A stretch of 64,000 bases of DNA from Parcubacteria group bacterium (GTDB lineage Bacteria > Patescibacteriota > Minisyncoccia > Moranbacterales > GCA-2747515). The first letter of the stretch is position 1. Each line of letters opens with the position of its first letter. Of the stretch, positions 3,001 to 49,257 are shown in pieces. The position numbers were made by a program, and so were the translations under genes. The notes below the pieces were generated by a model that was given only the letters and a program-made list of their open reading frames with translations, searched no databases and had not been told where the DNA came from. The DNA is taken from NCBI GenBank assembly GCA_041660065.1, contig JBAZXC010000002.1:102866-166865 (forward strand), read 5' to 3'.

Positions 3001-3110
3001 ATCGTTTCCGGTTTTGTGATCTCACCATGCGACCATCCGAGAATATTTTCCGGACTTGCGAGTCGGAGTCGGACGCTGTCGAAATCACTTACTTTTGTTG
3101 CATTTTCCAT
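1..3110 (-). CDS. rpoC: DNA-directed RNA polymerase subunit beta-prime (partial; C-terminus runs off the window start)
   Basis: Minus-strand translation from the ATG at 3108-3110 gives [85 protein letters not shown] (N-terminal Zn-finger). Downstream motifs include [14 protein letters not shown] (catalytic DxDGD). The frame is open to position 1 with no stop, which is why the ORF track does not list it. It sits immediately downstream of rpoB. Confidence 0.95.
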
Positions 3111-3146
3111 ATGTTTGATAAAGTTTAGATTTAATACATCGATGCA

Positions 3147-6927: not shown

Positions 6928-8109
6928 TTATGCGCCACAATCTGCGGTTGTATTTGCGTTGGCTGCGGCAGCTGTGCCTGAACCGAATCCTGGTGCCGGT
7001 GCATCACTGGACATTTCTGTCTGACATGCTGCCGGTTGTGTATTGAATGCGGAGCAAATCGCTTTCATGAGACTTGCGCTATCACGACCGGATTGGATCA
7101 ATTCCCCATTGATCACAAGAGTCGGCGATCCTTGGACACCATATTTCTCATTATCCGCCTTTGAGATGTTGAACTGAGGAAACTGTCCACTCACCCATGA
7201 CGACTTATCATTGAACAATTCTGTAACTTTGAATGCTTTATCTGTTTGCGCCACGCACTGCGCCAAAAGCGTTTGATTGACCAATGCTGTCTGCATGCAT
7301 GCTTTTTCATCCTGTTTTTCCAAAAAGCATCCAAGATACGCATGAAATTTTTGCGGTTCTTTTTCCTGGATGCAATACTGACGCAATTCTTCCTTCACTT
7401 CTTTCTCACCATGCATTGCATAATCCACAAATTTGAATTTTGCATTGACAGTTGTGCCAAGAGCTTTCAACACCGGCAAAATGCCCTTCTCGATCTGCGT
7501 ACCATATGGGCAGTGACTCATCACAAAGATCTCAACTTCCGGTTTATCTGATTTTGTCTGCACTTCTGTAGTCTCAGTTGTTGTGGCATCCTCTTCCGCG
7601 CTCTTTTCTTCAAGTTGCTTTGTATCAACAAGCTGCGGAATAAACTTGGTCATATCTTTTGACATGTACGACGTCACTTCTTGACCCTCTACAGTAATGA
7701 TCATTTTATAGAGACCGCTTTCTTCTGTGATTTTACCGATCTCAACCTTTGTGCCTTCCGGAACCAGTTGACCGGTGATCATTTTCATCGCATTATCCCG
7801 AACTTCCTGCGCCACCTTTTCTTTTACAGGACGTTCTTCGCCGACGTTGTCACGTTTTTGCATTTGGAAATATGCAATAGCACCCACTGCCAGAACGACG
7901 ATCACAAGCCAAATAAAAATATTCTTTCCTCCTTGTATGCCACAGCACACATCACCGCATGTCTTTCCTTCGCATGAGCCTCCTTCGCATACACCATCCT
8001 TACATGTGCCACTCTCACACGTTCCTCCCTCGCATGAACCTTTTGCCTCCTCTTCCGGAGTTTTCTTTTCCTCTACCACTTCTTCTGTCTTTTTTTCCTC
8101 TGACATCAT
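6928..8109 (-). CDS. Membrane-anchored thioredoxin-fold (DsbA-like) protein with an N-terminal Cys-rich tail
   Basis: The N-terminus has CxGGxC/CxxGxC repeats (GSCEGGTCESGTCKDGVCEGGSCEGKTCGDVCCG). One TM helix follows (IFIWLVIVVLAVGAIAYF). The C-terminal domain has the SHCPYG CxxC motif typical of the thioredoxin/DsbA fold. Confidence 0.6.
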   Translation of the reverse strand: MMSEEKKTEEVVEEKKTPEEEAKGSCEGGTCESGTCKDGVCEGGSCEGKTCGDVCCGIQGGKNIFIWLVIVVLAVGAIAYFQMQKRDNVGEERPVKEKVAQEVRDNAMKMITGQLVPEGTKVEIGKITEESGLYKMIITVEGQEVTSYMSKDMTKFIPQLVDTKQLEEKSAEEDATTTETTEVQTKSDKPEVEIFVMSHCPYGTQIEKGILPVLKALGTTVNAKFKFVDYAMHGEKEVKEELRQYCIQEKEPQKFHAYLGCFLEKQDEKACMQTALVNQTLLAQCVAQTDKAFKVTELFNDKSSWVSGQFPQFNISKADNEKYGVQGSPTLVINGELIQSGRDSASLMKAICSAFNTQPAACQTEMSSDAPAPGFGSGTAAAANANTTADCGA

Positions 8110-10924: not shown

Positions 10925-12187
10925 TTATACTGTATGCAATTTTGTAATTTCTTTTTTGCAAAACAAAAACATGATCAATAAAATGATCGCAACGACCACC
11001 GGTAATATAAAAAAGTATTGAGGCTGATTGATAGTGAATAAAATACACCCAAAAACTACCATACGACCAACTACCGTCGGCACTTCACGCAAGATGATAA
11101 ATTCTTCTTCATTTTTATCTTTGACCGATTTGTAGATATAACTGAAATATGGCACAAGAAAAAATGTCATTGAGAACGCACCTACCAGCGTTAATACATA
11201 CGCCATGATTTGTCCGTGAGAGAAAATCCTACCAACAGACACAACAATGACACACAGTGCTGCAATGATAATAAGTTTATGCGGATCTTTATTTGCTTTC
11301 TTCCCTATAAAAAACAAAAATAGAATTCCACCAATTGACGACAAGCTCCCTACTATGCCAGGCACTGCTAATGACCCGATCATGATGTACACATAAATAC
11401 TCCAATACCAATGTGATTCTTCGATTACATTATCAAGTGACTCAAGAAAAAATAATTTCTTTCGTTTTTTTATTTTTGCAAAAGTCTCTTTCCAATGCAA
11501 TGATAATTTTGATTCATGACTTTTAATGCCGTGAAGTGGGATAAATGACAAGATGAGTCCCAAGATTGCAATGATAAATATCGGCCAAAACCCGACAAAA
11601 TAAACCATCACAACACTTATGAGCGGATTGAGTACTTGTAAAATTTTTGGTAAAGCAAAAAACGTTGCAAGATCGGTGCCCATTTTATCAAAATCTGTAT
11701 GTTTTACCAAAAGAATATTTAATGGCACCCAATAGATAAATGTTGCCATTCCGCCGACCATTGCCACAATGCCAAATGGCATATGCCAGTCTTGCATAAA
11801 ATACAAACTTACATAAAAAAGAATTTCCATCGGATAATAAAGTTGAAAAATACGCACCAATCCGATTTTTTGTATCAATGGTGAGATTACAAATAGAGTA
11901 AATAACAAACCAAATCCATGGAAGATTGCATAAAAAACAACGACATCTGTCAATGTATTGCCAATCGTCAATAAATACACCGGCACATAAATGCTCACAA
12001 AAGAAAGCGCAATTGATCGGATCGTGTGTGCAATATGGATGCGATAGATCTCTCGCTTGTCTTTTATGATTTTTTGGAAAATCAATTGTACTTCAAACAA
12101 ATTTTTTATCATTTCTAATTTTGAACTTCCAATATAATTTTCATTTATTTTCCATAAATTTTTTAAGCCCCTCAACTGTAATTTCAT
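10925..12187 (-). CDS. Polytopic membrane protein, possible MFS-like transporter
   Basis: About 12 predicted hydrophobic helices. The N-terminus overlaps the upstream gene by 47 nt, so the real start is probably the internal Met near 12112. Confidence 0.4.
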   Translation of the reverse strand: MKLQLRGLKNLWKINENYIGSSKLEMIKNLFEVQLIFQKIIKDKREIYRIHIAHTIRSIALSFVSIYVPVYLLTIGNTLTDVVVFYAIFHGFGLLFTLFVISPLIQKIGLVRIFQLYYPMEILFYVSLYFMQDWHMPFGIVAMVGGMATFIYWVPLNILLVKHTDFDKMGTDLATFFALPKILQVLNPLISVVMVYFVGFWPIFIIAILGLILSFIPLHGIKSHESKLSLHWKETFAKIKKRKKLFFLESLDNVIEESHWYWSIYVYIMIGSLAVPGIVGSLSSIGGILFLFFIGKKANKDPHKLIIIAALCVIVVSVGRIFSHGQIMAYVLTLVGAFSMTFFLVPYFSYIYKSVKDKNEEEFIILREVPTVVGRMVVFGCILFTINQPQYFFILPVVVAIILLIMFLFCKKEITKLHTV

Positions 12188-13142
12188 AACTTCTCACGAA
12201 AGAATCATCCACGTGCGCATAAAGTAATCCCTTCCCATTTTGTTGATCCATAAAATAACTGGCAAAGGTAATCGTTTTTGCTTGACTGTCCCTGATAAAA
12301 TAATTTGGAGAGATCCACTCAATTTTACCTTCTTCATAATTATAGATAAATAAACCTACAGAAAATTTTCCATATTTTACAAACGTCCCGTTTTTTCTAT
12401 CCACCTCTCTGCCATTCATAAACCCAAGACACTTCCCCTCTCCTACATCAATAAATTTTCTTGACATCAACGGACCTGGTGAAGCATGTCCACCAGCCCA
12501 TTCAATATTTTCTTTTTTAGGGTGAAAAACTGTTTTGCCAAATTTCCAATTTTTCCCCATGTCTTCCGCGATGACCGTTCTTATAGTCGAATACCAATAT
12601 CCTTTGCCATGATCACTCGATTCAACAAGATTATATCTAAATCCACGTTTATTCATCGGAGCAATCGACACTTCTTTTGCTCCACAGTTATTTTTTTCCA
12701 TCAAAACCGGTTGTGTCATTGTCAAATCACTCAGATCTGTCCCAAATGCATGCCCCAAGTGCACGACCGCATTTCCTGTTCGTTTATTAAATAAAGGGAT
12801 TGTAAAATAGACATGCAGTGTATTATTTGTCTCATCCGCCCAAATATCCGGATCTTCAAATCCGATAAAGTCTAGTCCTTTTTTATTGAGAGAGTTTATG
12901 ATTTCTTCTGTATTTTTCATGTACAGTTCACATGTGATCTCATAGATCCCTGCATCATTTTTTACTACTTTATACAAAGCACTTCTGTCAACATACCCTC
13001 GTTTTTCCACATCTCCCTCTCTGCTGACTACACATCTAATAATGCCTTCTTTCCAATCAAAATGTGAATTGAGAGTCAAAGCCATAATATGTTTAAACCT
13101 TCTATCAGATTTTATAGCTGTTTCTTTATTTTCTAAATACAT
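12141..13142 (-). CDS. Hypothetical protein, possible beta-propeller glycosidase-like (GH130/DUF377-like)
   Basis: FEDPDIW resembles the EDPR motif of GH130/GH43-type propellers. Weak similarity only. Confidence 0.3.
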   Translation of the reverse strand: MYLENKETAIKSDRRFKHIMALTLNSHFDWKEGIIRCVVSREGDVEKRGYVDRSALYKVVKNDAGIYEITCELYMKNTEEIINSLNKKGLDFIGFEDPDIWADETNNTLHVYFTIPLFNKRTGNAVVHLGHAFGTDLSDLTMTQPVLMEKNNCGAKEVSIAPMNKRGFRYNLVESSDHGKGYWYSTIRTVIAEDMGKNWKFGKTVFHPKKENIEWAGGHASPGPLMSRKFIDVGEGKCLGFMNGREVDRKNGTFVKYGKFSVGLFIYNYEEGKIEWISPNYFIRDSQAKTITFASYFMDQQNGKGLLYAHVDDSFVRSYEITVEGLKKFMENK

Positions 13143-16498: not shown

Positions 16499-16920
16499 GG
16501 GGATGCTTTTAGCTTTCGACAGTTTGTCGTCTGCCGATATGCACGTCGGGCATGTATATTCACCCCGTAAAACTGGTATACACATTGATAAGTGCAAACT
16601 TCATCAACAAAGCAAAAGTAGCATTTGCTAACGCATTTGCTCCATCTTTTGCACCGTCTCTCGCGTAATAAACGCTTGAGCCATCACACAGTCGATATCT
16701 CATAGACTGATCGTGGTGTCATATTATGAGGTTCGTCACATTGGAGTATCATTGCTTCTTTATGACTAAATCTACAATGATAGATCATGGGATTTTTTGA
16801 TCACTTTATCGCCCGTGATCGAACATGTCGATTTGCATCGACACGAAAAGTGCTCTAAACGTGTAAGAAGTATTGTCGGATCAACAAATTTGGACGTGGG
16901 TGCAATTCCCACCATCTCCA
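16499..16920 (+). ncRNA. ssrA: tmRNA (transfer-messenger RNA, ssrA)
   Basis: Lies immediately downstream of smpB. The 5' end GGGGAUGCUUUUAGCUUUCGACAG resembles the canonical tmRNA 5' end. The 3' end has a T-arm-like GTGGG-tgcaatt-CCCAC, then CATCTCC, which pairs with the 5' GGGGAUG to form a 7-bp acceptor stem with a discriminator A; CCA is not encoded. An internal tag frame (gca aac ttc ... ccg tct ctc gcg taa taa) ends in LA plus a double stop. Confidence 0.72.
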
Positions 16921-17081
16921 CAAATTTAGTATATGAGACATGTAGACTTGTAGACCACTAGAAAAAAATCTACATATCTCATAACTTGAAGTACGATATG
17001 ACCTCATTTAAATATTTGGACACATTGTGCTAGTATATATATACTTTACAAACTTTTTACTTTTAACTTTACACTGAATTT

Positions 17082-36244: not shown

Positions 36245-36451
36245 AGGTTGATATTATATTTAAGATAGAACAGCATTAGTTACCAATTTTAGACCATTTT
36301 TGCCCTATGGTCAAGAGAAAGGTCAAAACCCAAAAAAATCCACCGAATATTCCGTCGCAACCCCGACAGTTCATCCGCATCACATATTGCCACGCACTAG
36401 AGCGTGGTAATATGTGGCTATGTTTATACGAGAAAATCAAAATAAATAAAA

Positions 36452-36475
36452 AACCCTGAGATGCGTCTCAGAGTT
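36452..36475 (-). terminator. Rho-independent terminator ending the ATPase/giant-protein operon
   Basis: Minus strand has stem ctgaga/tctcag with loop cgca, followed by ttttttatttatttt. Confidence 0.6.
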
Positions 36476-36501
36476 TTGAATTTTGTTTAAAAAAGAAAAA
36501 A

Positions 36502-38985
36502 TTATTTCCAAAAATGTTCCGCTGGCGATTGCGGTGACGGTTGTACGAATACAGAACGCGCAGCTACTTCTCTCTCAATAATGTCGCGATCGCGACCATA
36601 TTTGAGTCGTGATAATTCTTTGATCGGGTCAACGATGTCCGGATTACCTTCTGTCGGAAGGGGTGCTTTCATATTGAACGGTGCCGTTGAAATATTATTG
36701 AGAAGCAATCGCGCAAAATAATTATAATTATCCACATTGATCAGATCCTGCGCAGTAAAGACCGGCGCAAACTGTTTTTCGAGAAATTCTGCATCCTCTG
36801 CACCGACGCGCAATACTGCCAACGAGCCCACGTTACCAAAAACCGCCTTGGAAATGCCCTCAGACAATTGTCCGATAAACTGATGTGCAATGATAAGTGC
36901 GAGCCGATATTTACGCGCCTCAGACAAAATTTGTGCAATTGAATCCGTCGTTACATTCTGAAACTCATCGATATACAAATAAAAATCTTTTCGATCTTTT
37001 TCCGGCATGTCCACACGACCCAATGCCGCCATCAATAGCTTTCCCACGATCACCATACCAAGCAAATGACTGTTTGTCTCACCAATTTTTCCTTTAGATA
37101 GATTGATCAGCAGGATCTTTTTTGTATCCATGATATTGCGAAAATCCAACGTGCTTTTTTGCTGAGAGATGATCGGACGCATCATGTCATTGGAAAGAAA
37201 TGGCGTGAGCTTTGATGTAATATATGGCACCATATTTGCGAGAGCGGCTTCACCGCCGGCTTTTTCCGCTTCATTCATCCAAAAATCTTTGACTACCATA
37301 TTGCGACAACGCGACAATTTCATGCGACGGAAATTTTCATCAGCCAAAACTTTCGGGATTTCCATAAGCGTTGACCCCGACTCCGGATCGTCCATGATCA
37401 GAAGCATGGCATTGCGCATGTACTGTTCAAACATCGGGCCGCCGGTTGCTTTGAGATCATAGAGCTTATCAAAGATATTGATGATCTCATTGATCACAAA
37501 TGTTTTTTCTTCCGGCTTATTGTATTCCAACATATTCAAACCGAAAGGACGTTCTGTATCCGATGGATCAAAATACACCACATCCTCTGCCCGCTCTTTT
37601 GGTACAGCAGTCAGGATATCCTCGATCGCCTCTCCATGCGGATCCACAAAGCACAATCCGTGTCCATTGCGCACATCCTGCTTTGCCATTTCTTGCAACA
37701 ATGTTGATTTACCGGTACCCGTTTGTCCAATCACATAAAGATGGCGACGGCGATCATTTTGTGACAGATAAATGTCCGTATTGACACCGCGATAATCATT
37801 CCATCCCAAATACACACCTTCTTTCGGCACATCGGTTGGTGGTGGCGCACTCCCTGCTTTGAGCCATTTGATCTTTGGCGTTTCTGTTGTCGATATAGGA
37901 AAATGGAAAACGCTCGCAATTTCTTCCACACCCAAAATTACACTCGCATCCTCATCAAATGCACGAAAAATATAGTTGAATGCTTGTTTTTTTGTTCTTG
38001 TGCCGAAACGTTTGATCAAAAAATGATTCACACCGGGATTTTCAAACTGCGAAAAAGCATTTTCCATATGCGACAAAATTTCCTCCGCACGCTCCTGCGT
38101 GCCTGCAGAAGCCACGAGACGAATGTTGGCAAGAAACGCTGCTTTTGATGTTTTTGATTCAATTGCCTTGACCAACTCCTGCTCTTCCGGCGTCAGTTGC
38201 ACTCGCTTATCCATTGCATGTTGTTCAGAAACTTTTTTTGTTCCAAAGGCTTTCCCTGCTTCTTTGAAGACTTCCCCGGCAATGCTCCTATTTACATCTT
38301 TCAGTTGCTTTCCTTGTTGCATTTCATGTGCAAATTTACGCCCTTTTGCACGCCACCCAGATCCAACATCATGCAGAACAATCTGAATACTTGCACCTTC
38401 ATCATGCGAATTTAATTTACTAAACGCCGTCGTAATTTCACTGAGCGGATCCTTCTCCATACGCTCATATGTACGAACCGGCAATGCGCTATGCCTCTTC
38501 AACGACACAACGCCCATCGCTGTTTTTGATCCCGGCGTAAATATTGTATAGTCCTCCACTTTCTCGATCGATGAATCAGAAAAATAACTATGCACTTGTT
38601 TTTCAAGAGAAGATCGATATTTTTTTGGCACAGAAATGTAAAAAAATATTTCTTCTTTTCCTGCAGGATTTGCGATCTCAAGAGTGATCGTCGGTTTGCC
38701 ATACACAAAAGCCCTCCATGAGATCTTTTTATCTTTTAATTGCGCAAGGGAAATAAGAAGCTGTTCCATCACGCCGATTTCTTCTTTCCACATCTCCGGA
38801 TTTTGCCGACCTTTTTCATTGCGGTGTCTATTTTGTGCAACGCGAATCACTTCCAGATCTTCATTCATTGATCTGTTCACAATAATTCGATACCCAAAGA
38901 TACTTCTGAGCACTAAAAATGCTCCCGTAATCACACTGACCACCGCAGACATGCCAATCAAAACAATAAATATAAGACCAAACAT
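36502..38985 (-). CDS. FtsK/HerA/VirD4/VirB4-superfamily P-loop ATPase with an N-terminal TM segment (putative conjugation- or T4SS-type ATPase)
   Basis: N-terminal hydrophobic segment. Walker A HLYVIGQTGTGKSTLL followed by FVDPHGE. Walker B YLYIDEFQNV. C-terminal LALIIAHQFIGQL. This architecture resembles T4CP/VirB4/TcpA-like ATPases. Confidence 0.6.
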   Translation of the reverse strand: MFGLIFIVLIGMSAVVSVITGAFLVLRSIFGYRIIVNRSMNEDLEVIRVAQNRHRNEKGRQNPEMWKEEIGVMEQLLISLAQLKDKKISWRAFVYGKPTITLEIANPAGKEEIFFYISVPKKYRSSLEKQVHSYFSDSSIEKVEDYTIFTPGSKTAMGVVSLKRHSALPVRTYERMEKDPLSEITTAFSKLNSHDEGASIQIVLHDVGSGWRAKGRKFAHEMQQGKQLKDVNRSIAGEVFKEAGKAFGTKKVSEQHAMDKRVQLTPEEQELVKAIESKTSKAAFLANIRLVASAGTQERAEEILSHMENAFSQFENPGVNHFLIKRFGTRTKKQAFNYIFRAFDEDASVILGVEEIASVFHFPISTTETPKIKWLKAGSAPPPTDVPKEGVYLGWNDYRGVNTDIYLSQNDRRRHLYVIGQTGTGKSTLLQEMAKQDVRNGHGLCFVDPHGEAIEDILTAVPKERAEDVVYFDPSDTERPFGLNMLEYNKPEEKTFVINEIINIFDKLYDLKATGGPMFEQYMRNAMLLIMDDPESGSTLMEIPKVLADENFRRMKLSRCRNMVVKDFWMNEAEKAGGEAALANMVPYITSKLTPFLSNDMMRPIISQQKSTLDFRNIMDTKKILLINLSKGKIGETNSHLLGMVIVGKLLMAALGRVDMPEKDRKDFYLYIDEFQNVTTDSIAQILSEARKYRLALIIAHQFIGQLSEGISKAVFGNVGSLAVLRVGAEDAEFLEKQFAPVFTAQDLINVDNYNYFARLLLNNISTAPFNMKAPLPTEGNPDIVDPIKELSRLKYGRDRDIIEREVAARSVFVQPSPQSPAEHFWK

Positions 38986-39013: not shown

Positions 39014-39451
39014 TTATTGTTCAATGAACCCCTTTGCAATAAGTGCTTGATAAAACTCTTCGGCGCGCATCCGATCATGCAATTGATCCAAAACATAATA
39101 ATCCTCCACCCGTTGTGCCACCTTTACCGCATGTGCCACACCTTTTGTCATTGCCAAATCCATGAGATGCGATATTTGCGACTCACGATCTGCAATTTGA
39201 TGCAATGCGCTTGCATCTTGCGTTATTGTGTCATCATCATGTTGATGCGATTGCGATTGTACTTGTGACAAAATCTGCGTGTACACTGTATCATTTTGCG
39301 CACGCGTTTTTTCCCGTGCATTCTCTTGTACGGGTTCTTGCTCTTCTTGAGCGTGCGATCCTTTTGCATCTTGCACGCCAAAACGGCGCTCCAGACTGAC
39401 AAATTCTGGATTGAGTTTTTCACCACTTGGCGGATTTTGTTGATCTGGCAT
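39014..39451 (-). CDS. Hypothetical acidic protein (145 aa), operon partner of the ATPase
   Basis: 28-nt gap to the downstream ATPase and 23-nt gap to the upstream gene. No motif recognised. Confidence 0.45.
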   Translation of the reverse strand: MPDQQNPPSGEKLNPEFVSLERRFGVQDAKGSHAQEEQEPVQENAREKTRAQNDTVYTQILSQVQSQSHQHDDDTITQDASALHQIADRESQISHLMDLAMTKGVAHAVKVAQRVEDYYVLDQLHDRMRAEEFYQALIAKGFIEQ

Positions 39452-39474: not shown

Positions 39475-39798
39475 TTATGTTGTGGCTGTTTCCGTAATGT
39501 GTTTTTTGAGATCGGCAATTGCCTCTGCAATGATACTGTCATAATCCGTGAGTTTCTCGCGCAAAAATGTTTCGATCGCGTTTGGATCGATATTCTCAAT
39601 ATTTTCCATCAAATCTTCAAATTGTTTGCGATCAGAATCGCTCAGCTTGGTATAGGCGTCCACTAAAACACGCTTGATTACCGATTCCGTCATACGTTCA
39701 ATAAGACGTTCTTGTCTATCCGCATCCAAATCGGTAAAACCAAATTCTTGTGCGATCACTTGTTGAATTGTTTGTGGTTGTTGAATATCCTGTGTCAT
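39475..39798 (-). CDS. Hypothetical acidic helical protein (107 aa)
   Basis: Co-directional with the cluster, 26 nt downstream of giant protein A. Confidence 0.45.
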   Translation of the reverse strand: MTQDIQQPQTIQQVIAQEFGFTDLDADRQERLIERMTESVIKRVLVDAYTKLSDSDRKQFEDLMENIENIDPNAIETFLREKLTDYDSIIAEAIADLKKHITETATT

Positions 39799-39824: not shown

Positions 39825-42800
39825 TTATAACTTAAACTCTTGTGGAGGAAAAATTGCATCAGTTTTATGCATCGCTTCTGCGCGTGCCGCAATACGCGTA
39901 AAATATGATTGCACCGTAGCATCTTTCCCTGGCGAACCGACTTCATCACCGAATGTTTGTTTTGCTCGTTCAACTATGCCGGCAAGTCGTGTCTGCATAT
40001 TTGGCTCAACACTGCCCTCCGTTAAAAAAAGATCCAATTTTGTCCCGGCAATATTTTTGATCTGCGCCAATGAATCCAATCCAAATGTTTTTTGAATTTT
40101 TGCGCCAACCATAGTATTCATAAATTCCTTTTGATCGAAATCTGGTCGTTCTCGCAAAATGTTCATGATTTCTATGTCATCCATTTTTGCATATGCTTCA
40201 ACACTTTCTGAAACCGCATGCTCGCCACCATCAACCACTTTTTCCTTCAAAATGTCATGCATATCACCACCCTTGCCACTGAGATAACTTTCCATATGCG
40301 TATTCAAATTCCGCATTGCAATTCTTTGCTGAGTATGATCAGAAAATCCACTCAAATCTCTCTTATAGCCGTCCGCCATCTTGCGCGCCGCATCCTCATC
40401 GATACCTCGTCCCATCAATTCTTTGGTAATATCATCCGCCGATGACTCCGGAGTAAATGTAAATGCTGAAGTCATGACACGATCACCTTCTTTAGGAACA
40501 AAATCATCAGCATTTGGCGAACGTCGCACAACATTTTCCTCTGCGTTACCTGTAGCAGTCCCTTCCTTAACCTCAGCTCCTTCATTATGGATTTCGGAAG
40601 TAGGAGCGATTGGTATTTCTTCAGAAGCTACCGGCATCTGCTCGATCGTTTGTCCTTGAAAATCAATCTCATGGGAACGCAACACATCCTCAACGGTTTT
40701 ATTGTAAAAATCAGCATGATTTTCTTTGGCAAGGTTGATCAAGTACTGATCCATTGGCGTCTGCATGCCACCATTTGCATGCATGAGCTCATCAACATAC
40801 TTATCAGCCGAAACTGTGGCAAAAAATTTATATTGATCATTATCCATGCCAAAGATCTTTTGGATATCTTCTTTTGTATTCACATCTTTGACCACTTCTG
40901 CATTTGAAACGTCTTGCTCAACCGCATGCGGTGCTTCCGTTTGAATATTTGCTTCTTCTGGTACAACGTGCGAACTTCCCGCAAGCTCAACATCCGGTTT
41001 GATATCGCCGAGGTTGTGGAGATCAAGTTTAATTTTTGTGCCAGGTTGTATGTGATCAATGTCAACTCCCGGATGTGCCTCTCTATACTCATTTGCCAAC
41101 ACAACCGCACGCGCCCTTGCCCACTCATGCACATTTTCATATTTTGCCGGATCCCATCCCATCTTTCCTTCAGTCAAAATCGTATGATTGTCCCCATTCT
41201 CGAGAAATTCTCGTATTGTTTTGATCACACTGGAACCCGCTTTAACAGTCAAAACCCCGGCAACACCCTCAGGATCAACAACGATTCCCTTGAGATCGTG
41301 CCACGACTCATTTTTCATCAGATCCTCATTTTGTGGAGTGGGCGCCTCACGATTATCGTCTACCGACTGTACATTTTCATTCTGAACTGCGTTTTGTTCT
41401 GCCATTGACGTATCAGCAGGGTCTGCAGGTATATTTGGTTGTTCCCCGAGAGATGTAAAAGTGTCACCAACAGGCGTTTGATCCGGCGCCACACCTTTGA
41501 TAAGATCATCCAGAGAATCTCGATCAACACTTTGCCCGATGGACTCTTGTGCGTTCTGCACGGCATTCTCCGCAATCTGTGCATCGTCTATGCTATGCAA
41601 TACGGATTGCACTTCTTCCGGATTGATATCTTTTAGCTCTTGCGCAAGCAATGGCTTCCCGAGATTATCCAAAAATTCTTTGTCCGGTGCATGAACGACA
41701 GCATCATGTGACGCAATGTCATTTATGCCATGCGTATCACCACCCATCAGCATAAAAACACTCCCGCCGGCAATCGCGCCCGTGATCAATCCCGCCAATC
41801 GTGCATTGCGCGTGATCGCTTCTTTTCTCTTCACATCTCCCACGATGTTCTTGTAATCAAAATCCATCAAGTGGAGAAATTGTTCTTCTTCGGTCATATT
41901 TTCAAATGCTTTCTTTTCTGTTGCCTTTTCTTTCGTCAGACGATTACTTTGCCATTTTTCTACAAGTTTTGTCGTGCCCATGCCTACTGCCACACCCGCC
42001 CCGATCGGTGCCAAAAACTTTCCCAAAGCAGCAACGCCCTTCAATGTCGACATCGTCGTTTCGCCGGCCCCAAACTTCATTGCAACTTTTGGAGCCATCT
42101 GAAGCATTGTGCGGACACTACCAGAGATCACGCCAAGCCCCACCGATCCTATCGCAAGCGCCTTCTGCACAGTCTTATTGCTCGCCCATCGTGCAATTGG
42201 TGAAAGATACTTTCCCATTGCCGATACATTCTCCGCCTTGATCTTTGTGCGTTGCTCTTGCAAGAGAACACTTTCATTCAAACGACCCTCTGCAATATCC
42301 TGTCGCACCGTTTTTTGATCTTCCGGAGAAAGATTTTGATAATTCTCTGTGAGAAATTGATCTAATTTTTTGCACGCAGATTCATATTCATCACGAAATA
42401 TTTGTAATTCTTTTTGTGCTTCTGTATCATCATGTCCCAATGCAAATTTGCGCAGTTTTGCCAGTGATGCATTGACAGAAATATCTTTACGCATGTATAT
42501 TTCACGCTTTTGCGCAATATCCACACGCAATTGTTCAAGCACTTCATTTTTGATTTCTGCTGTTTTGGCACCATGCGCTTCTGCACGCCTATTGACTTCA
42601 CGGTCAAACTTTTCTTCTTCAGTCATATCTGTATCGCGGGATCCTTCTGCTCTTTCACTTGCATTTTTAACTTCGTCACGCCTGTTAACCTCGCGATCAA
42701 ATTTTTCCTCCTCATGCATGTCTGTATCACGAGATGAACTCTCTCTATTTTCCGCATCTTTACGTCTATTGACTTCACGATCAAATTTTTCTTCTTCATT

Positions 42801-43523
42801 CAAATCTGTATCACGCGATGTTCTTTCACCTGCGTTCACACCGGATCCATTCTCTGGCCCCTCTGCTTTACTGCCATCATCACCTTGTGTCGATGCACTA
42901 TTTTCCAGTAATGTCGCTATAGATGCAATTTTTTCAGCTTCTTCAATATCCTGTGTCAAGACTTTTGCATCTTTTTCATATTTTTCCAATTTCTTTTTTT
43001 CTCCATCAAATTTACCCTGCGCAATATCACTTGCGTCAAATTGTTTTTTACTTTCATAATTTTCACCCGCATCGACTATGCCACGCAACCGTGTAATTTC
43101 CTTCTGCAATTCTTGCAATTCTTCTTTTTTGCCACTAATATTTTCTCCTTTGCGCGCGTTGATATATTCGCGCAATGCATCCTGATCGATATCATGAAAC
43201 GTCCCATCGGCATATTTTGCTTTTTCTGCCAAAAGTTTTTCTCTCTTCTTCTGGTATTTTTCCACATCACTTGCTTTTGCGACAATTTCTCCCGCCGAAT
43301 CACTTGTTGCATGCAAAGCACTTTCTCTACCGGAAATTTTTACATCAATAAGGGCAATCTCTTGATCAATCTCCTGAGAAATTTTTTTTTGATCTCGATT
43401 GCCATTTTTTAGAAACTGTGCAACCTTTTCTGCAGACGCCCCATGCAAAACAGATGCAAAATGTTTTTGGTTTTTTACTAATTCATTTGATTCTGCTACT
43501 GGTTTCATTTTTTCAATATTCAT
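39825..43523 (-). CDS. Giant repeat-containing membrane-associated protein A (1232 aa)
   Basis: N-terminal coiled-coil-like KE-rich region. Three tandem 28-31-aa repeats (SRDTD[LM]xEEEKFDREVNRR...). A central cluster of Gly/Ala-rich hydrophobic helices. An acidic linker. A C-terminal module shared with the upstream paralogue (TVKAGSSVI...VDIDHIQPGTKIKLD; C-terminus KQTFGDEVGSPGKDATVQSYFTRIAARAE). Confidence 0.7.
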   Translation of the reverse strand: MNIEKMKPVAESNELVKNQKHFASVLHGASAEKVAQFLKNGNRDQKKISQEIDQEIALIDVKISGRESALHATSDSAGEIVAKASDVEKYQKKREKLLAEKAKYADGTFHDIDQDALREYINARKGENISGKKEELQELQKEITRLRGIVDAGENYESKKQFDASDIAQGKFDGEKKKLEKYEKDAKVLTQDIEEAEKIASIATLLENSASTQGDDGSKAEGPENGSGVNAGERTSRDTDLNEEEKFDREVNRRKDAENRESSSRDTDMHEEEKFDREVNRRDEVKNASERAEGSRDTDMTEEEKFDREVNRRAEAHGAKTAEIKNEVLEQLRVDIAQKREIYMRKDISVNASLAKLRKFALGHDDTEAQKELQIFRDEYESACKKLDQFLTENYQNLSPEDQKTVRQDIAEGRLNESVLLQEQRTKIKAENVSAMGKYLSPIARWASNKTVQKALAIGSVGLGVISGSVRTMLQMAPKVAMKFGAGETTMSTLKGVAALGKFLAPIGAGVAVGMGTTKLVEKWQSNRLTKEKATEKKAFENMTEEEQFLHLMDFDYKNIVGDVKRKEAITRNARLAGLITGAIAGGSVFMLMGGDTHGINDIASHDAVVHAPDKEFLDNLGKPLLAQELKDINPEEVQSVLHSIDDAQIAENAVQNAQESIGQSVDRDSLDDLIKGVAPDQTPVGDTFTSLGEQPNIPADPADTSMAEQNAVQNENVQSVDDNREAPTPQNEDLMKNESWHDLKGIVVDPEGVAGVLTVKAGSSVIKTIREFLENGDNHTILTEGKMGWDPAKYENVHEWARARAVVLANEYREAHPGVDIDHIQPGTKIKLDLHNLGDIKPDVELAGSSHVVPEEANIQTEAPHAVEQDVSNAEVVKDVNTKEDIQKIFGMDNDQYKFFATVSADKYVDELMHANGGMQTPMDQYLINLAKENHADFYNKTVEDVLRSHEIDFQGQTIEQMPVASEEIPIAPTSEIHNEGAEVKEGTATGNAEENVVRRSPNADDFVPKEGDRVMTSAFTFTPESSADDITKELMGRGIDEDAARKMADGYKRDLSGFSDHTQQRIAMRNLNTHMESYLSGKGGDMHDILKEKVVDGGEHAVSESVEAYAKMDDIEIMNILRERPDFDQKEFMNTMVGAKIQKTFGLDSLAQIKNIAGTKLDLFLTEGSVEPNMQTRLAGIVERAKQTFGDEVGSPGKDATVQSYFTRIAARAEAMHKTDAIFPPQEFKL
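42572..42830. repeat. Three tandem copies of an approximately 90-bp coding repeat inside giant protein A
   Basis: DNA units ...cgatcaaa(c/t)ttttc(t/c)tc(t/c)tca...atctgtatc(g/a)cg(g/a)ga... recur three times, encoding the SRDTDxxEEEKFDREVNRR repeats. Confidence 0.8.
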
Positions 43524-43619
43524 ATTAAATTTTGATTTTCCCTTACGCTTATATTGGTCATTATACTACATTTTATATTGTTCACCTAAAAAACACCCGC
43601 CAATTGCTTTTCACGCTCT

Positions 43620-45686
43620 CTACACTGTTTTTTCTAGTGCATTGTCCTGTAACAAACCCTCTCGCAATGCCACGCGAAAGAGATAATGCGCGACCTTTGT
43701 CTGTGTGTGAGGCGCACCAACGTGTCCGTATGTTTTTTCTGTGTGAGCAATGAGATCACGCAGACGCTTTTGCACTTCATTTTGATCATTTTGCGCCAAA
43801 AAATCGTGCACATTTGCCTGTGAGATCCGTTTAACAAATTGCTGTCGTTCTTGCATCGGTGCATTTTGCAATTCATCCGGTGCAAAAATTTCCATGATCC
43901 GATCAAAAACAATTTTTTTCATCTCCGCACCTTTTTGCGCATCAGACGTGATCTCTTGGATCTTTAGCAATTCTGCTTGCGGCGACATCGTGAGGTTTTC
44001 TTGCGTACCATTATCAAAATTTTTAATTTTTTCTCCTTGATCGCCTACATTGCCATGATCTGTCGCCAAAGATGCTCCTTCTGTCACATCAGTTTCATGC
44101 GCATCATATTCAGAAATTGTCTTGCCTTTTTCTTTTTCATATTGTCCACGTTTTGCGAATGTGATGTTGTCAATATGTACATTGTCAAATCCGCCATCCT
44201 GTGGTGCAAAAGAAAAGTCGATTGTTGTCCCCGGCTGTACATGATCCAAATCAACTTTTTTGCCTCCGCTTTTCTTTTTTAGATCTTTTGCATACTGCTG
44301 TGCGATGCGGTGAGCCATCTGTTCCGGCGTTTTATCAGAACCTTCCAACAGCTCAGGATGTGCATCCAAATGATTGCGCAATGATCCCTCAATACTACTC
44401 TTTGGCTCAACGGTAATAGAGAACGACTGTCCTGATTGATAAGGGTTTTCATTTGCAACGCTACCCTGCGTTTGTGTTTCGATTTTTTCCGGCTGCGCAT
44501 TCTTTGCGTCCTCAACATATTCCTGCACGAGTTTTTGTACATCTCCTTCCTGCATATGCACAGCACCGCCGATGCGATCATCCCTCTGTTCTATGGTCTG
44601 CGTGTCAAAATTGATCTGTTTTTCTTGTTTGTGTCCATCTGCCATGCCGTGAATAATGCCTGCAACTACGAGAGTTGCAAAAAGCACGCGTTTTGTGTAT
44701 CGTGGAAGCTTTATATATTGTGCAGAAAAGTTTTTGACGATTGTAAAAATTTTACCTTTACTTTTTTTTGCTCGTGCATCCGTGATCGCATCATACACCG
44801 CGATGCCTTCATAGGACTCTCCCAACATCATGTCAACTTCTCGCGACCGTCGATCTTCTCCATAGCCTTGCGAAGTAATATATTTACTATGAATCTCATT
44901 GTATGCATGTCTCGCTTTTTGGTATTCAGCATAGAAAATGCCCACGCTACCATCGTTCTTTTTTTGATCTTCACCCTGCAAGGAATTTGCGTTACGCCCA
45001 TCTTTTGCAGGATCAACGTGATCAGTTTGCATAAAAAACTCCTTAACCCTATCCCATGCCGTTTCATATTCAACCTTTTTTTTCGCGTATAGCTCTCTTG
45101 CCTGAACCATTTTCTTTTTCATTTCTTCTACATCAGCCTCTCTGACAATTTCTGGTACCACGATCTCCTGGACAAGAAATGATTTTCCTTTTCCTTTCAC
45201 TATATCATCCAATCGTTCCGCCTGAATTTTTTTAAGAATCACATTGATTTGCGCCTCGTTAATAATGCCGTGTTCTTCCCGCAAGTTTTGTCGCACTTGT
45301 TCAAAAAATTCTGCTCGTGCGCTGACATTTTCAATAGGAATTTCTTTAAAATCACGGATATATTGCGGGACAACTTGCGTCAAAATATGTCCATCGCGAG
45401 ATCTCATGTCCGCATCATACCCCGCAGCAACATTACTACCATCCTCATTTTTTCGATCAAAGTCCAAACGTTGTGCAATAATAGATTCAATTTCTTTTTC
45501 TTCATCTTTTGTAAGATTTTCCCGCACAACAAGACCGGAAACCGCGTCATGAATGACTGTACGTTCTCCCTCTTGATCAACGTGATCCTGTGATTGTATT
45601 TCTTGTTTTATGTGCTCGACGAGACTGGCAACTTTTCTAATAACGTCATCGCTGAGCATTTCTCCATTACCATGATGATCATGCAT
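43620..45686 (-). CDS. Giant membrane-associated protein B (688 aa), paralogue of protein A
   Basis: One TM (RVLFATLVVAGIIHGMA). Shares with protein A a TVxxxSSI...VDLDHVQPGTTIDF module and a C-terminal EKTYGHVGAPHTQTKVAHYLFRVALREG motif. Otherwise low complexity. Confidence 0.65.
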   Translation of the reverse strand: MHDHHGNGEMLSDDVIRKVASLVEHIKQEIQSQDHVDQEGERTVIHDAVSGLVVRENLTKDEEKEIESIIAQRLDFDRKNEDGSNVAAGYDADMRSRDGHILTQVVPQYIRDFKEIPIENVSARAEFFEQVRQNLREEHGIINEAQINVILKKIQAERLDDIVKGKGKSFLVQEIVVPEIVREADVEEMKKKMVQARELYAKKKVEYETAWDRVKEFFMQTDHVDPAKDGRNANSLQGEDQKKNDGSVGIFYAEYQKARHAYNEIHSKYITSQGYGEDRRSREVDMMLGESYEGIAVYDAITDARAKKSKGKIFTIVKNFSAQYIKLPRYTKRVLFATLVVAGIIHGMADGHKQEKQINFDTQTIEQRDDRIGGAVHMQEGDVQKLVQEYVEDAKNAQPEKIETQTQGSVANENPYQSGQSFSITVEPKSSIEGSLRNHLDAHPELLEGSDKTPEQMAHRIAQQYAKDLKKKSGGKKVDLDHVQPGTTIDFSFAPQDGGFDNVHIDNITFAKRGQYEKEKGKTISEYDAHETDVTEGASLATDHGNVGDQGEKIKNFDNGTQENLTMSPQAELLKIQEITSDAQKGAEMKKIVFDRIMEIFAPDELQNAPMQERQQFVKRISQANVHDFLAQNDQNEVQKRLRDLIAHTEKTYGHVGAPHTQTKVAHYLFRVALREGLLQDNALEKTV

Positions 45687-45826: not shown

Positions 45827-47458
45827 ATGTCAATTTGTGTTATAATGAAGAATATTATTCACCCCAAAACCATCATGACATATGCTAGCCACAAAAAAAT
45901 ACACTACATCCTTCTTACCTTGATCATTTTGCTCGGATTTTTTGTTCGTATCTACCACATTGATTCCGTGCCAAGTGGCATCTATCCGGATGAAGCAAAT
46001 AACGGCACAAATGCCTTTGATGCCCAGCGGACAAATATTTACCCGTGGTTTTACCCCGACAATAACGGACGCGAGGGATTGTTTATTAATCTCATTGCAA
46101 TTCTTTTTAAATTGTTTGGCGTAAATATTATTACATTCAAACTGCCGGCAATCATCATGGGAACATTGACGGTGATCGGCGTGTATTTTCTCTCGCGTGA
46201 ATTATTTATCTCTCGACCGCGTCTTGCGCTCATTGCCGCCTATTTGACTGCTATAAGCTATTGGGCGGTGAATTTTTCTCGCATTTGCTTCCGCGCCAAC
46301 ATGATGGTGCCGATTCTCGTTTTTCTTTTTTATTTCCTTTTTAAAGCCCTGCGCACGCGCAAGCCCCTCCATTTTGCCATCGCCGGCGCTTTGTGCGGAC
46401 TGGGATTTCACACCTACATTGCCTATCGCATCACTCCGGCGCTTGTTCTTGTCCTTTTTGTATTATTTGCGATCCAACAAGGTTTTTCCCATTTTATCAA
46501 AAGATATTGGAAAGGGCTGTTGCTATTTTTTGTCAGTGCATTCCTCGTATTTGCCCCAATGGGTTATACCTATTACACACATCCGGAATACCTCACATCC
46601 CGCACTGGCGATATATCGGTTTTTGCAGTGAAAGATGCCCCCCTTACACAAACACTTACATACACGATCACTCTTTCTCTTTTAAAATACAACGTAGCGG
46701 GTGACAACAATTGGCGCCATAATTTTCCACCGTACCCGTTATTGGAACCATGCGTTGGATTAATGTTTCTCGGCGGACTCATAACGTCGATTGGGCTCTT
46801 TTTCCTTTACCTCTTTCGCCGCTATCGTTTCAATGTGCGCAATCGTACTTTTGTTGTGCATGGATTTCTCCTTGCGTGGTTTGTCGGATTTCTCGCACCA
46901 GAGTTTCTCACCACGGAAGGATTGCCTCATGCACTGCGATCCATTGGCACAATTCCTGTGGTATTTATCTTTGCAGCATTTTTTATCACCATTCTTCTCG
47001 AACGCTCACAAAAACATTCGCACCTCTTATTCGTAGCCGCATCAGTCATGACAGTTACACTCCTTATTTACTCTGGTTTTTTTGACATGATCAAATATCA
47101 TGTGTTTTGGGCAACAAACGTCAACCAAGCGTACGCATTCAACAAAAATCTCACTGATATGGGAAGATTTGCTCATGATTTGCCCCAAAGTGAGGTGCAA
47201 ATCTACATTGTCGCCGGACACATGGATCTCTTGCCGGTCAAAATGCTCACCACAGACCGCACAGACACGCGTTACGTCTACGAAAACGACCTTGCGCAAA
47301 TCGACACTACGCAGCCATTCATTCTCCTTTTGCCATATGAAAATATCTCTGTTATCGATTATGTTGCAAAACGTAGTGATGTAGTGATAGAAAAAATTCA
47401 AAAACCTCTCAATAGTTCATTTGTAATGGTCACGTCAATTAATAATCAAAAACTATGA
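45827..47458 (+). CDS. GT-C fold membrane glycosyltransferase (ArnT/PMT-like, GT39/GT83 family)
   Basis: About 12 TM helices. N-terminal loop motif SVPSGIYPDEANNGTNA is typical of ArnT/PMT_2. The start is more likely the ATG at 45874 (MTYASHKK), because a TATAAT box overlaps the track start. Confidence 0.7.
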   Translation: MSICVIMKNIIHPKTIMTYASHKKIHYILLTLIILLGFFVRIYHIDSVPSGIYPDEANNGTNAFDAQRTNIYPWFYPDNNGREGLFINLIAILFKLFGVNIITFKLPAIIMGTLTVIGVYFLSRELFISRPRLALIAAYLTAISYWAVNFSRICFRANMMVPILVFLFYFLFKALRTRKPLHFAIAGALCGLGFHTYIAYRITPALVLVLFVLFAIQQGFSHFIKRYWKGLLLFFVSAFLVFAPMGYTYYTHPEYLTSRTGDISVFAVKDAPLTQTLTYTITLSLLKYNVAGDNNWRHNFPPYPLLEPCVGLMFLGGLITSIGLFFLYLFRRYRFNVRNRTFVVHGFLLAWFVGFLAPEFLTTEGLPHALRSIGTIPVVFIFAAFFITILLERSQKHSHLLFVAASVMTVTLLIYSGFFDMIKYHVFWATNVNQAYAFNKNLTDMGRFAHDLPQSEVQIYIVAGHMDLLPVKMLTTDRTDTRYVYENDLAQIDTTQPFILLLPYENISVIDYVAKRSDVVIEKIQKPLNSSFVMVTSINNQKL

Positions 47459-49257
47459 TCAGAAAAAACTACATCTTCATTATCATTGGAATTATGCTCT
47501 TTATGGGCATCACTTCTTTTCTTCTTGCTTGGAATGATTCGTTGACATTTGACGAGGTTGCGCATATTCCCGCAGGATACAGCTATGTTGTGTTACATGA
47601 TTATCGCCTCAATCCCGAGCATCCACCCCTCGCCAAGATACTCACTGGTCTCATGCTCCTCCCTCTGCATCCACACTTTGATACTACGCAGGACTTCTGG
47701 ACAGAAACTCACGGCACCGGCGAATACGGACAATGGGATGCCGGACGCTATTTATTGCACCATGCAAACAACGACACCGACAAAATTGTTTTTTTTGCAC
47801 GCATGCCCTTTATCGTCCTTGCCCTTGCTTTTGGATTGTTCCTCTTCTATTGGGGCAAGAGAACTGGTGGCATCATCACTGGTCTTTTTGCTCTCATTTT
47901 ATACGCATTTGACCCAAACATCCTCGGACACGATCATCTTGTGACGACAGATCTTGCCATTGCCATTGCCATGAGCATCGCATTTTTTTATTTTTTGCAA
48001 TTTCTCAAAAACCCCACCTGGAAAAATGCTCTGTACGGAGGTATCGCCCTTGGCATTGCACAAATTACAAAATTCAGTGCGATCCTCCTCATCCCATTCT
48101 TTGGACTACTTCTCGTGATTTATCCCTTGCTCATAATCCTCCCCAAAGAACAAAAGCGTCACAAGATATTTGGCTCCTATCTACTCAAAGGGATATTTGC
48201 CATGTTCATAATGCTTGCAGTAATGTATGCAACATATTTACCCGTCACGTATAAGATGCCATCTGATGTCCTCCCCACGATTGCCGCTGTCAAAGGCCAG
48301 CCGAACAAATACCCGCGCGATAAATATCTCATCGCCTTCATTAATAAAACCAATCAAAGCACTCTTACCAGACCAATTGCGACGTACACCCAAGGGATTA
48401 TGCAAGTATTTAATCGCGTCGATGATGGAAATGTTTCGTATTTTATGGGCACCGTATCAAGCAATGCATCTGTGTGGTATTTTCCTTTTGTTTTTATTGC
48501 AAAGCAAACCCTCGCACACTTATTCTTTTACATTGTCGCTCTCATTCTTGGACTGCTCCTCATCGTCCATTCAGTACAACGTGTTTTTACGCAAAAATTC
48601 GCACACTCACTCCACGCCTGCCGTCGTTTTTGTATACGCAGATTTCATGAGATTGCTCTTGGAGCATTTGTTGTTTTTTACGGTTATATTTCCATAACCG
48701 GCAATCTCACCATTGGCTTTCGCCATCTCTTTCCCATAATGCCCCTTCTTTACATCCTCACAGCACGCACACTGATCAATTCATACACCAAACTTCATAA
48801 TCATTTCTGGCAAAAGATCGTACGTGGAATATTTGTCGGCATTATTCTCGTTCTTGCGACACTTACCATTAGCGCTTATCCCTATTATATTTCCTATTTC
48901 AATGAACTTTTTGGCGGACCAAAAAACGGATTCCATTATGTTACGGATTCCAATGCCGATTGGGGACAAGATCTTAAGCGTCTTAAAAAATATCTCGACG
49001 CGCATCCGGAAATCGACAAGATTCGCATTGATTATTTTGGCGGTGACAATGTCACTAATCGCATTGGCGATAAATATATCATGTGGTGGGATAGCAAACG
49101 ACCGATCGAACCGGGCTACTACGCGATTTCCACGCTCCTCTTACAAGAGTCTCTCTATCGTACTGATCGCTCCTATGATGACACCTACCGCTGGACAGAA
49201 AAGCTCACACCATTTGATCACGTTGGCACATCCATTATTCTATACAAAGTTGAATAA
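47455..49257 (+). CDS. GT-C fold membrane glycosyltransferase (PMT family, dolichyl-phosphate-mannose mannosyltransferase-like)
   Basis: FDEVAHIPAGYSY and EHPPLAKIL motifs (PMT DE..H / HPPL signature). Multiple TM helices. Overlaps the upstream gene by 4 nt (ATGA). Confidence 0.7.
   Translation: MIRKNYIFIIIGIMLFMGITSFLLAWNDSLTFDEVAHIPAGYSYVVLHDYRLNPEHPPLAKILTGLMLLPLHPHFDTTQDFWTETHGTGEYGQWDAGRYLLHHANNDTDKIVFFARMPFIVLALAFGLFLFYWGKRTGGIITGLFALILYAFDPNILGHDHLVTTDLAIAIAMSIAFFYFLQFLKNPTWKNALYGGIALGIAQITKFSAILLIPFFGLLLVIYPLLIILPKEQKRHKIFGSYLLKGIFAMFIMLAVMYATYLPVTYKMPSDVLPTIAAVKGQPNKYPRDKYLIAFINKTNQSTLTRPIATYTQGIMQVFNRVDDGNVSYFMGTVSSNASVWYFPFVFIAKQTLAHLFFYIVALILGLLLIVHSVQRVFTQKFAHSLHACRRFCIRRFHEIALGAFVVFYGYISITGNLTIGFRHLFPIMPLLYILTARTLINSYTKLHNHFWQKIVRGIFVGIILVLATLTISAYPYYISYFNELFGGPKNGFHYVTDSNADWGQDLKRLKKYLDAHPEIDKIRIDYFGGDNVTNRIGDKYIMWWDSKRPIEPGYYAISTLLLQESLYRTDRSYDDTYRWTEKLTPFDHVGTSIILYKVE

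Follow-up and report, generated by a model that had tools for sequence, protein, structure and literature searches.

Organization of the locus

The stretch of DNA analysed here (the window) comprises 64,000 nt of the 307-kb contig JBAZXC010000002.1, positions 102,866–166,865, from a Parcubacteria group bacterium. It contains two adjacent minus-strand open reading frames (ORFs), designated genes A and B, upstream of the gene for a VirD4-like ATPase. A preliminary description, made from the sequence alone, had presented the two products as giant paralogous proteins with a LysM-like module, a common C-terminal signature and, in A, tandem repeats. Both ORFs lie exactly at the coordinates given in that description and the peptide strings it quoted are found in the sequence; the term "giant" is an overstatement for products of 1232 and 688 aa. 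As detailed below, A and B carry two domain families that are absent from the databases searched, and they may be resident proteins of an ATPase-driven apparatus of the cell envelope. They are the first genes of a putative operon with the following features:

43620–45686, minus strand: gene B, first gene of the operon, 688 aa, identical to the hypothetical protein WC819_03215 of NCBI
39825–43523, minus strand: gene A, second gene, 1232 aa, identical to the hypothetical protein WC819_03210 of NCBI
39475–39798, minus strand: DUF5663 gene, 107 aa; product acidic, helical and without membrane segment (PF18908, 26.2 bits against a cutoff of 23.7)
39014–39451, minus strand: gene for a 145-aa protein (p145), conserved in its C-terminal half and with no family match above threshold
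36502–38985, minus strand: ATPase gene, closing the operon; its 827-aa product is a P-loop ATPase of VirD4/TrwB/TraD-like type and carries a membrane anchor at its N-terminus
36450–36477, minus strand: terminator-like hairpin of 12 pairs plus a T-rich tail, 25 nt past the ATPase stop codon (consensus scan only)

The intergenic distances are 96 nt between B and A, 26 nt between A and the DUF5663 gene, 23 nt between this and p145, and 28 nt between p145 and the ATPase gene. The consensus scan found a terminator-like hairpin only after the ATPase gene, and this probably marks the end of the operon. Orthologues of A share 83, 54 and 44 % identity with it, and an orthologue of the B product was found at 81 %. 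In protein B, a charged helical N-terminal region is followed by one membrane helix, then by a B-type module and finally by the C-terminal domain. The parts of both proteins that concern us here are as follows:

44637–44690, minus strand: single predicted transmembrane helix of B, aa 333–350, from hydropathy
44193–44435, minus strand: B-type module, aa 418–498, homologous to the A-type module
43623–43928, minus strand: C-terminal all-alpha domain of B, aa 587–688
42585–42818, minus strand: three 19-aa copies of SRDTDxxEEEKFDREVNRR in A, aa 236–254, 264–282 and 295–313, with cores at 42762–42818, 42678–42734 and 42585–42641
41736–42170, minus strand: Gly/Ala-rich membrane region of A, aa 452–596, with hydrophobic stretches at aa 452–474, 494–521 and 575–596
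40998–41270, minus strand: A-type module, aa 752–842, LTVKAGSS...TEGKMGWDP...HEWARARA...DIDHIQPGTKIKLDLHNLGDIK
39834–40130, minus strand: C-terminal all-alpha domain of A, aa 1132–1230

Paralogy of A and B and their C-terminal domain

A BLASTP comparison of A with B returned weak but collinear local matches in three regions: the module (A 753–835 with B 419–493, 31 % identity, E = 3e-4), the C-terminus (A 1135–1214 with B 589–675, 26 % identity, E = 1e-4) and, more weakly, the helical region that precedes the membrane segments (E = 0.03). When profiles of the A-type and B-type modules were compared with hhalign, they matched with a probability of 99.1 % (E = 4.3e-19, 66 columns) and, because of this, the likeness of both proteins is not merely compositional, an outcome that the preliminary description had asked to be checked by pairwise and profile alignment. 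Additionally, a hidden Markov model (HMM) of the C-terminal domain built without B-type sequences found B with E = 6e-5 (Z = 1e6), and its only hits among the 398 ORF segments of the window were A and B. These alignments indicate that A and B are true paralogues with three collinear homologous regions, namely the pre-membrane helical region, the module and the C-terminal domain. The proposed paralogy, common module and common C-terminal signature are thus borne out, and both proteins belong to a wider family.

The C-terminal signature turned out to be a separate all-alpha domain of ca. 95 aa, distinct from the module, with the consensus PeF..v..qiqe.FG....nIa...l......l..vi.RAq..lGd.vg.P..natVg.YFtRIFArAv.eGKvkdIFPssdF. 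Of the 59 family proteins collected, 44 have it at their extreme C-terminus according to an iterated local HMM search, and several of those without it are fragments. The AlphaFold model of the domain is confident and all-alpha (pLDDT 88, pTM 0.81), and no match was found for it in Pfam, among PDB sequences (best E = 0.14) or among PDB folds (Foldseek E = 1.5, TM < 0.3). A sub-threshold match of the C-terminus of B to Pfam DUF7863 (window 43623–43934, minus strand; 22 bits against a cutoff of 25, profile positions 81–146 of 169) was judged unreliable, being present in two B-type sequences only, with the other 35 of 37 sequences scanned negative. Likewise, we rejected a second, internal copy of the domain in A (aa 872–955, IQKIFGMD... 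resembling IQKTFGLD...; hhalign probability 12 % over 14 columns) and a homology of DUF5663 to the C-terminal domain (0.7 %).

A third paralogue of 629 aa is encoded in a related locus (L001, 17915–19804) and contains a Gly-rich membrane region and the C-terminal domain, without the module. It is followed by a second DUF5663 gene (19850–20188 of L001, which comes from the same contig as locus L003), and both genes are situated between the ATPase gene and uvrA.

The module shared by A and B

A profile search of 1.84 billion representative proteins identified 56 proteins with the module at E < 1e-3, 28 of them at E < 1e-10, so that the family is narrow. Nearly all carriers are of the Moraniibacteriota type and all but a few have 600–1700 aa, with the module situated at ca. 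70–80 % of their length. In an alignment of 49 sequences the module is an alpha/beta domain of about 80–95 aa with the consensus LTVEKGSSIEGTLxKFLxxNxxKLTEGxMGWDPxKYxxVxEWAxKRAHGLAxEFAKAHPGIDLDxVQPGTxLxLDLSNPADIK; the B-type module lacks the 12-residue segment TEGKMGWDPAKY and both conserved Trp residues. The AlphaFold2 model obtained with the family alignment as input is a confident one (pLDDT 86, pTM 0.80); it starts with a strand, continues with a helix, a short helix, a long loop and a long helix, and ends with two strands.

None of the 49 sequences had a convincing match in Pfam, full-length A and B retrieved nothing from NCBIfam, comparison of the module profiles with PDB sequences gave nothing credible, and a further homology search with the 49-sequence alignment returned zero matches. 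A match of the module to a well-known annotated domain, which the preliminary description had named as a possible outcome, was not obtained in Pfam, NCBIfam or PDB. PADLOC and PHROGs also gave nothing for A or B, and a defence-system or phage origin of these proteins is therefore unsupported. The module and the C-terminal domain are domain families absent from Pfam, NCBIfam, PHROGs, PADLOC and PDB, and both could enter the domain databases.

Comparison of the module with LysM

LysM is a compact domain of ca. 44 aa with a beta-alpha-alpha-beta fold and two antiparallel strands, which binds glycans that contain N-acetylglucosamine, such as peptidoglycan and chitin. The likeness of the module to LysM proposed in the preliminary description did not hold at the level of sequence and was retained only as a fold-level resemblance, based on the model and on weak Foldseek matches. 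With the Pfam models of the LysM clan (PF01476 / CL0187), no match at E ≤ 10 was obtained for any of 6 module sequences or, in the larger set, for any of 49. Using a LysM profile built from seven LysM sequences taken from PDB matches, hhalign gave a probability of 1.2 % with the profile of the entire family and of 1.0 % with that of the B-type modules; in global mode, or after removal of the insert, the values stayed below 3 %. The signature of LysM consists of GDTL after strand 1, an invariant Asn where helix 2 ends, and GQ before strand 2. The module does not conserve these residues, having G-S-S, no conserved Asn and P-G-T at the equivalent positions.

Foldseek comparisons of the module model with PDB and BFVD did not produce any significant match, the best E values being 0.5–0.7. 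LysM entries occupied ranks 2, 4, 5 and 22 for PDB and 2, 3, 8, 10 and 20 for BFVD, all of them non-significant (E 0.7–6, probability ≤ 0.47, TM ≤ 0.48), and LysM-bearing baseplate proteins also appeared in the lists. LysM is the most recurrent named fold among these weak matches. The module and LysM have in common an initial hxVxxGxS strand, a terminal PGTxh strand, two helices between the strands and, for the module as predicted below, an extracytoplasmic location on a membrane-anchored protein. In contrast, the module exceeds LysM by 25–35 aa and has, in addition, a third strand, a short helix and a long loop; the motifs that define the family, TEGxMGW and EWAxxRA, fall in the part that LysM does not possess. 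In the model, the order of the elements and the strand motifs of the module resemble LysM more than other catalogued folds, a resemblance that falls short of homology or of identity of fold. The order of elements also suggested a POTRA domain (beta-alpha-alpha-beta-beta), which we discarded because no POTRA structure appeared among the Foldseek matches from PDB.

It is conceivable, if unlikely, that the module is a true and highly diverged LysM domain, with a helical insertion of 25–35 aa between its helices, that anchors A and B to the peptidoglycan of their own cell. The common element order, the similar short motifs of both strands and the predicted location outside the cytoplasm speak for it, as does the fact that LysM entries are far more frequent in the PDB and BFVD lists than their share of these libraries; the window also contains genes for the cell wall (those for a MurA-type enzyme, MreB, FtsQ and a SLT domain protein). 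Nevertheless, the failure of all 49 members against the LysM-clan models, the hhalign probabilities of 1–3 % in every mode, the Foldseek values and the loss of the signature residues all argue against this identification, and neither the third strand nor the conserved Trp-containing segment has a LysM counterpart.

Membrane segments and predicted topology

Neither A nor B starts with anything like a signal peptide; in both, the N-terminal portion is a long helical region very rich in charged residues, and their C-terminal parts are strongly acidic, with half the content of Lys and Arg. The single helix of B is preceded by 7 Lys/Arg and no Asp/Glu in 24 residues and followed by 4 Lys/Arg and 7 Asp/Glu; in A, the last hydrophobic stretch has a Lys/Arg-rich loop ahead and an acidic stretch behind. 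This positive-inside charge bias at the helix of B and at the last helix of A predicts an N-in/C-out topology for both proteins, in which the variable acidic linkers would be extracellular together with the module and the C-terminal domain. In comparisons of A with its orthologues, conservation is highest in the membrane region (74–96 % identity). Behind the membrane segments, the linkers of the orthologues contain insertions of 100–180 aa; since such insertions are tolerated, as is typical of exposed regions, surface exposure of the linkers fits.

A metagenome contig (ODTX01001851.1, locus L012) contains a gene (2521–4920) for a 799-aa protein with 28 % identity to residues 486–620 of A, that is, to its membrane region only; the protein lacks the module as well as the C-terminal domain, and no ATPase is encoded close by. 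By this similarity, the membrane part of A may be a more widespread unit.

The ATPase and the conservation of gene order

The ATPase matches Pfam TrwB_AAD_bind over residues 406–713 (29.2 bits against a cutoff of 20.5), as well as DUF87 and TraG-D_C, and its matches to the TraD and VirD4-like equivalog models of NCBIfam remain below their cutoffs. Its best PDB match is TrwB, its N-terminus is hydrophobic (residues 1–38), and its orthologues carry PF26449 (DUF8128). Judging from these matches, it is an ATPase of the coupling-protein type (VirD4/TrwB).

The five genes (B-like, A-like, DUF5663, p145 and ATPase) are kept in this order in L002 and in L001/L003, these last coming from a single contig. 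The A-like gene, DUF5663, p145 and the ATPase gene follow one another in seven more loci, taken from species representatives of GTDB that are mostly Candidatus Moraniibacteriota, and an eighth (L004) has the B-like and A-like genes, its sequence stopping before the downstream ones. The B-type paralogue is restricted to closer relatives, with L005–L011 having only the A-type, and the gene order holds in every related locus examined with enough sequence.

The window, in which the operon is flanked by genes for UvrA, PMT_2, FtsQ, holB and GT4, leaves no ORF of VirB4 size unexplained, and no equivalents of a pilin, VirB3, VirB6 or VirB8 were recognised there. Neither VirB4 nor any other type IV secretion system (T4SS) family appears in the family listings of L001 and L002 beyond the ATPase's own matches; the related loci were screened only for the genes of the window itself. 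A survey of Patescibacteria recorded 5,713 genes for VirD4-like type IV coupling proteins (T4CP), only 148 of them near virB4, and its authors note a possible co-option of the orphan genes for other functions (Quinonero-Coronel et al. 2025, PMC12102498). The ATPase described here resembles these orphans in its matches to the TrwB, VirD4 and TraD models and its N-terminal anchor, and also in its chromosomal location among housekeeping genes with no adjacent virB4, as occurs with nearly all of the 5,713. However, whereas the survey assigns neither partners nor a function to them (PMC12102498), four fixed upstream partners accompany this ATPase: the B-type and A-type proteins, DUF5663 and the 145-aa protein. 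The locus gives fixed partner proteins to one lineage of orphan VirD4-like ATPases; two of these partners are membrane proteins whose LysM-like module and second, uncatalogued domain are probably surface-exposed. In the literature searched, DUF5663 and DUF8128 are not mentioned and the five-gene operon is not described.

The ATPase is also similar to phrog_5156 over its full length (E = 4e-82), with homologues in 71 phage records, nearly all from phages of Bacillus or Geobacillus (SP-10, phage G gp156, TP-84 and the Thrax phages). The architecture is the same over ca. 85 % of the length, where identity is 21–22 % (tblastn). The combination of an N-domain with a coupling-protein-like part therefore occurs in phages of Firmicutes as well. 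The phage homologues are proteins without known function; in the single phage neighbourhood looked at, no gene is annotated with a comparable function, and viral contigs yielded no relative of the module.

Divergently from B, the window contains two tandem genes for PMT_2-type (GT39/GT83-like) membrane glycosyltransferases (45827–49257, plus strand). Genes of this type adjoin the operon in all the loci that reach this region (L001–L005, L009 and L010), some having only one of the two, which hints at a possible link to the glycosylation of surface proteins or wall polymers. The entry corresponding to L003 (DYDB01000003.1) is titled "Micavibrio sp.", an alphaproteobacterium; since its gene content and order are those of the Parcubacteria window and of the Moraniibacteriota loci, the label of this metagenome-assembled genome looks wrong.

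Possible roles of A and B

Patescibacteria form a very large radiation that is almost entirely uncultured, and little is known of how they adhere to their hosts or how material passes between the two. We favour, with a confidence somewhat short of even, the interpretation that A and B are resident, membrane-anchored envelope proteins of an ATPase-driven apparatus, with cytoplasmic docking arms and, outside, the LysM-like module and a second domain. Specific to a Moranbacteria-type lineage of Patescibacteria, they would head the five-gene operon formed by B, A, DUF5663, the 145-aa protein and the ATPase. Their long charged N-terminal halves would remain in the cytoplasm, where the conserved SRDTD..KFDREVxRR peptide, present three times in A, could serve for docking, either of the ATPase or of the two small proteins. 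Owing to the membrane segments, the module, the C-terminal domain and the variable acidic linkers would be extracellular, and the module might then bind a ligand of the wall or of the surface, either the cell's own peptidoglycan or a glycan of a host cell. In this way, A and B would serve to anchor an envelope apparatus driven by the ATPase and to set its position, the apparatus functioning with no VirB4 encoded nearby. The components are of familiar types, namely an ATPase of the coupling-protein class, surface proteins with a membrane anchor and a small LysM-like alpha/beta domain.

Several points weigh against this interpretation. There is neither an experiment nor an annotated homologue behind any of the functions, and all functional statements are inference. 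The topology comes from a simple analysis of hydropathy and charge, and A may have either two or three membrane spans; with two, the module would lie in the cytoplasm. A conserved order of genes in small, highly syntenic genomes is not proof of a physical interaction, and genes for FtsQ, PMT_2 and UvrA are likewise conserved at the flanks of this block. Finally, homology to LysM fails in all sequence tests and none of the Foldseek matches is significant. The best-conserved residues of the module (TEGxMGW and EWAxxRA) are in the segment that LysM lacks and that has been partly lost in the B-type.

A more far-reaching proposal, which we consider improbable, is that the five genes encode an undescribed, VirB4-independent envelope apparatus of Moranbacteria-type Patescibacteria. 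In it, the cytoplasmic arms of A and B would tether a hexameric motor of the coupling-protein type by means of SRDTD..KFDREV, and the outside domains (the LysM-like binder and the new all-alpha domain) would engage the wall or a host cell. If true, the thousands of T4CP orphans in Patescibacteria would acquire a function.

Alternatively, the module and the C-terminal domain could mediate contacts between proteins, such as oligomerisation or the association of A with B, and the likeness to LysM would be a coincidence due to a common small beta-alpha-alpha-beta arrangement. The non-significance of all fold matches agrees with this possibility; A and B are encoded together with matched pairs of both domains, as would be the partners of a hetero-oligomer, and the absence of the Trp-containing segment from the B-type argues against a common glycan-binding site. 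Nevertheless, the many loci with the A-type only (L005–L011) indicate that an obligate A–B pair is not general, and LysM recurs among the weak matches more than at random, and we regard this explanation as doubtful.

By analogy with XVIPCD-bearing effectors, A, B and the third paralogue might instead be substrates or effectors of the VirD4-like ATPase, with the C-terminal domain as the signal and a T4SS encoded elsewhere in the genome. The XVIPCD of the T4SS effectors of Xanthomonas and Stenotrophomonas is a domain of ca. 100 aa, situated at the extreme C-terminus of proteins of varied architecture and co-encoded with a VirD4-type ATPase, and recognition of this type is established for an antibacterial T4SS (PMC8740702). 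The parallel lies in the conserved ca. 95-aa domain at the very C-terminus of otherwise diverse proteins, including a third paralogue that has this domain and not the module, and in the contiguity of the genes with that of a coupling-protein-like ATPase; moreover, genes for coupling proteins are often distant from virB4 (PMC12102498). Against this, the C-terminal domain described here has no sequence or fold match in PDB, a comparison for which the presence of an XVIPCD in the PDB copy used was not checked. Moreover, A and B possess conserved membrane segments and their charge bias predicts a Sec/YidC-type insertion, with a C-terminus that would already be outside. The membrane region being the most conserved part is a better fit to a resident membrane protein than to cargo, and a role as substrates appears quite unlikely.

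The SRDTD repeats of protein A

The preliminary description had reported three 28-aa tandem repeats in A, perfect enough at the DNA level to be recombinationally unstable. Three copies do exist, in the N-terminal part of A that is predicted to be cytoplasmic, with spacings of 28 and 31 aa (84 and 93 nt) and variable linkers of 9–12 aa. The perfection and the instability inferred from it did not stand: DNA identity between copies is 76–87 % for the 54-nt cores and 67–74 % for the 84-nt units, the longest exact run that they have in common is 14 nt, and Tandem Repeats Finder did not report any array. Codon by codon, 9 of 11, 5 of 7 and 11 of 13 substitutions between the cores are synonymous and, because the differences are mostly of this kind, the copies are old and have been constrained at the protein level.

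There are 3, 2, 1 and 1 copies in the orthologues with 100, 83, 54 and 44 % identity, respectively. The 83 %-identical orthologue is 28 aa shorter overall, with a deletion of about one unit in the repeat zone, and in four more distant members of the family the motif is present as a single copy with flanks that cannot be aligned. From these comparisons, SRDTD..KFDREV behaves like a conserved short linear motif. No strain-level relatives were found in the collections searched, A and its closest orthologue each forming a protein cluster of one sequence; of two metagenome scans for close relatives, the first found none and the second a single distant protein, similar in the membrane region only.

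A contingency locus, in which unequal recombination would alter the number of copies between strains and so tune the protein, would account for the decreasing counts in the orthologues and for a copy-number indel in register with the repeat unit, but it is very unlikely given the low identity and short exact runs of copies that Tandem Repeats Finder did not detect, their heavy synonymous divergence, which indicates old copies, and the single-sequence clusters and lack of a close relative in both scans, as a result of which strain variation could not show.

Other features of the window

The remainder of the window is housekeeping chromosome, with rpoB and genes for a class II aminoacyl-tRNA synthetase, DXS, GcpE, UvrA, FtsQ and holB; it also encodes MreB, the MurA-type enzyme, glycosyltransferases, the SLT domain protein and a transfer-messenger RNA (tmRNA). 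Two ORFs on the minus strand, at 6928–8109 (393 aa) and 12141–13142 (333 aa), are without a Pfam match at E ≤ 1e-5. The tmRNA gene (16499–16923, plus strand; Rfam, 118 bits) has a predicted tag that is unusually long, with 24 residues, ANFINKAKVAFANAFAPSFAPSLA.

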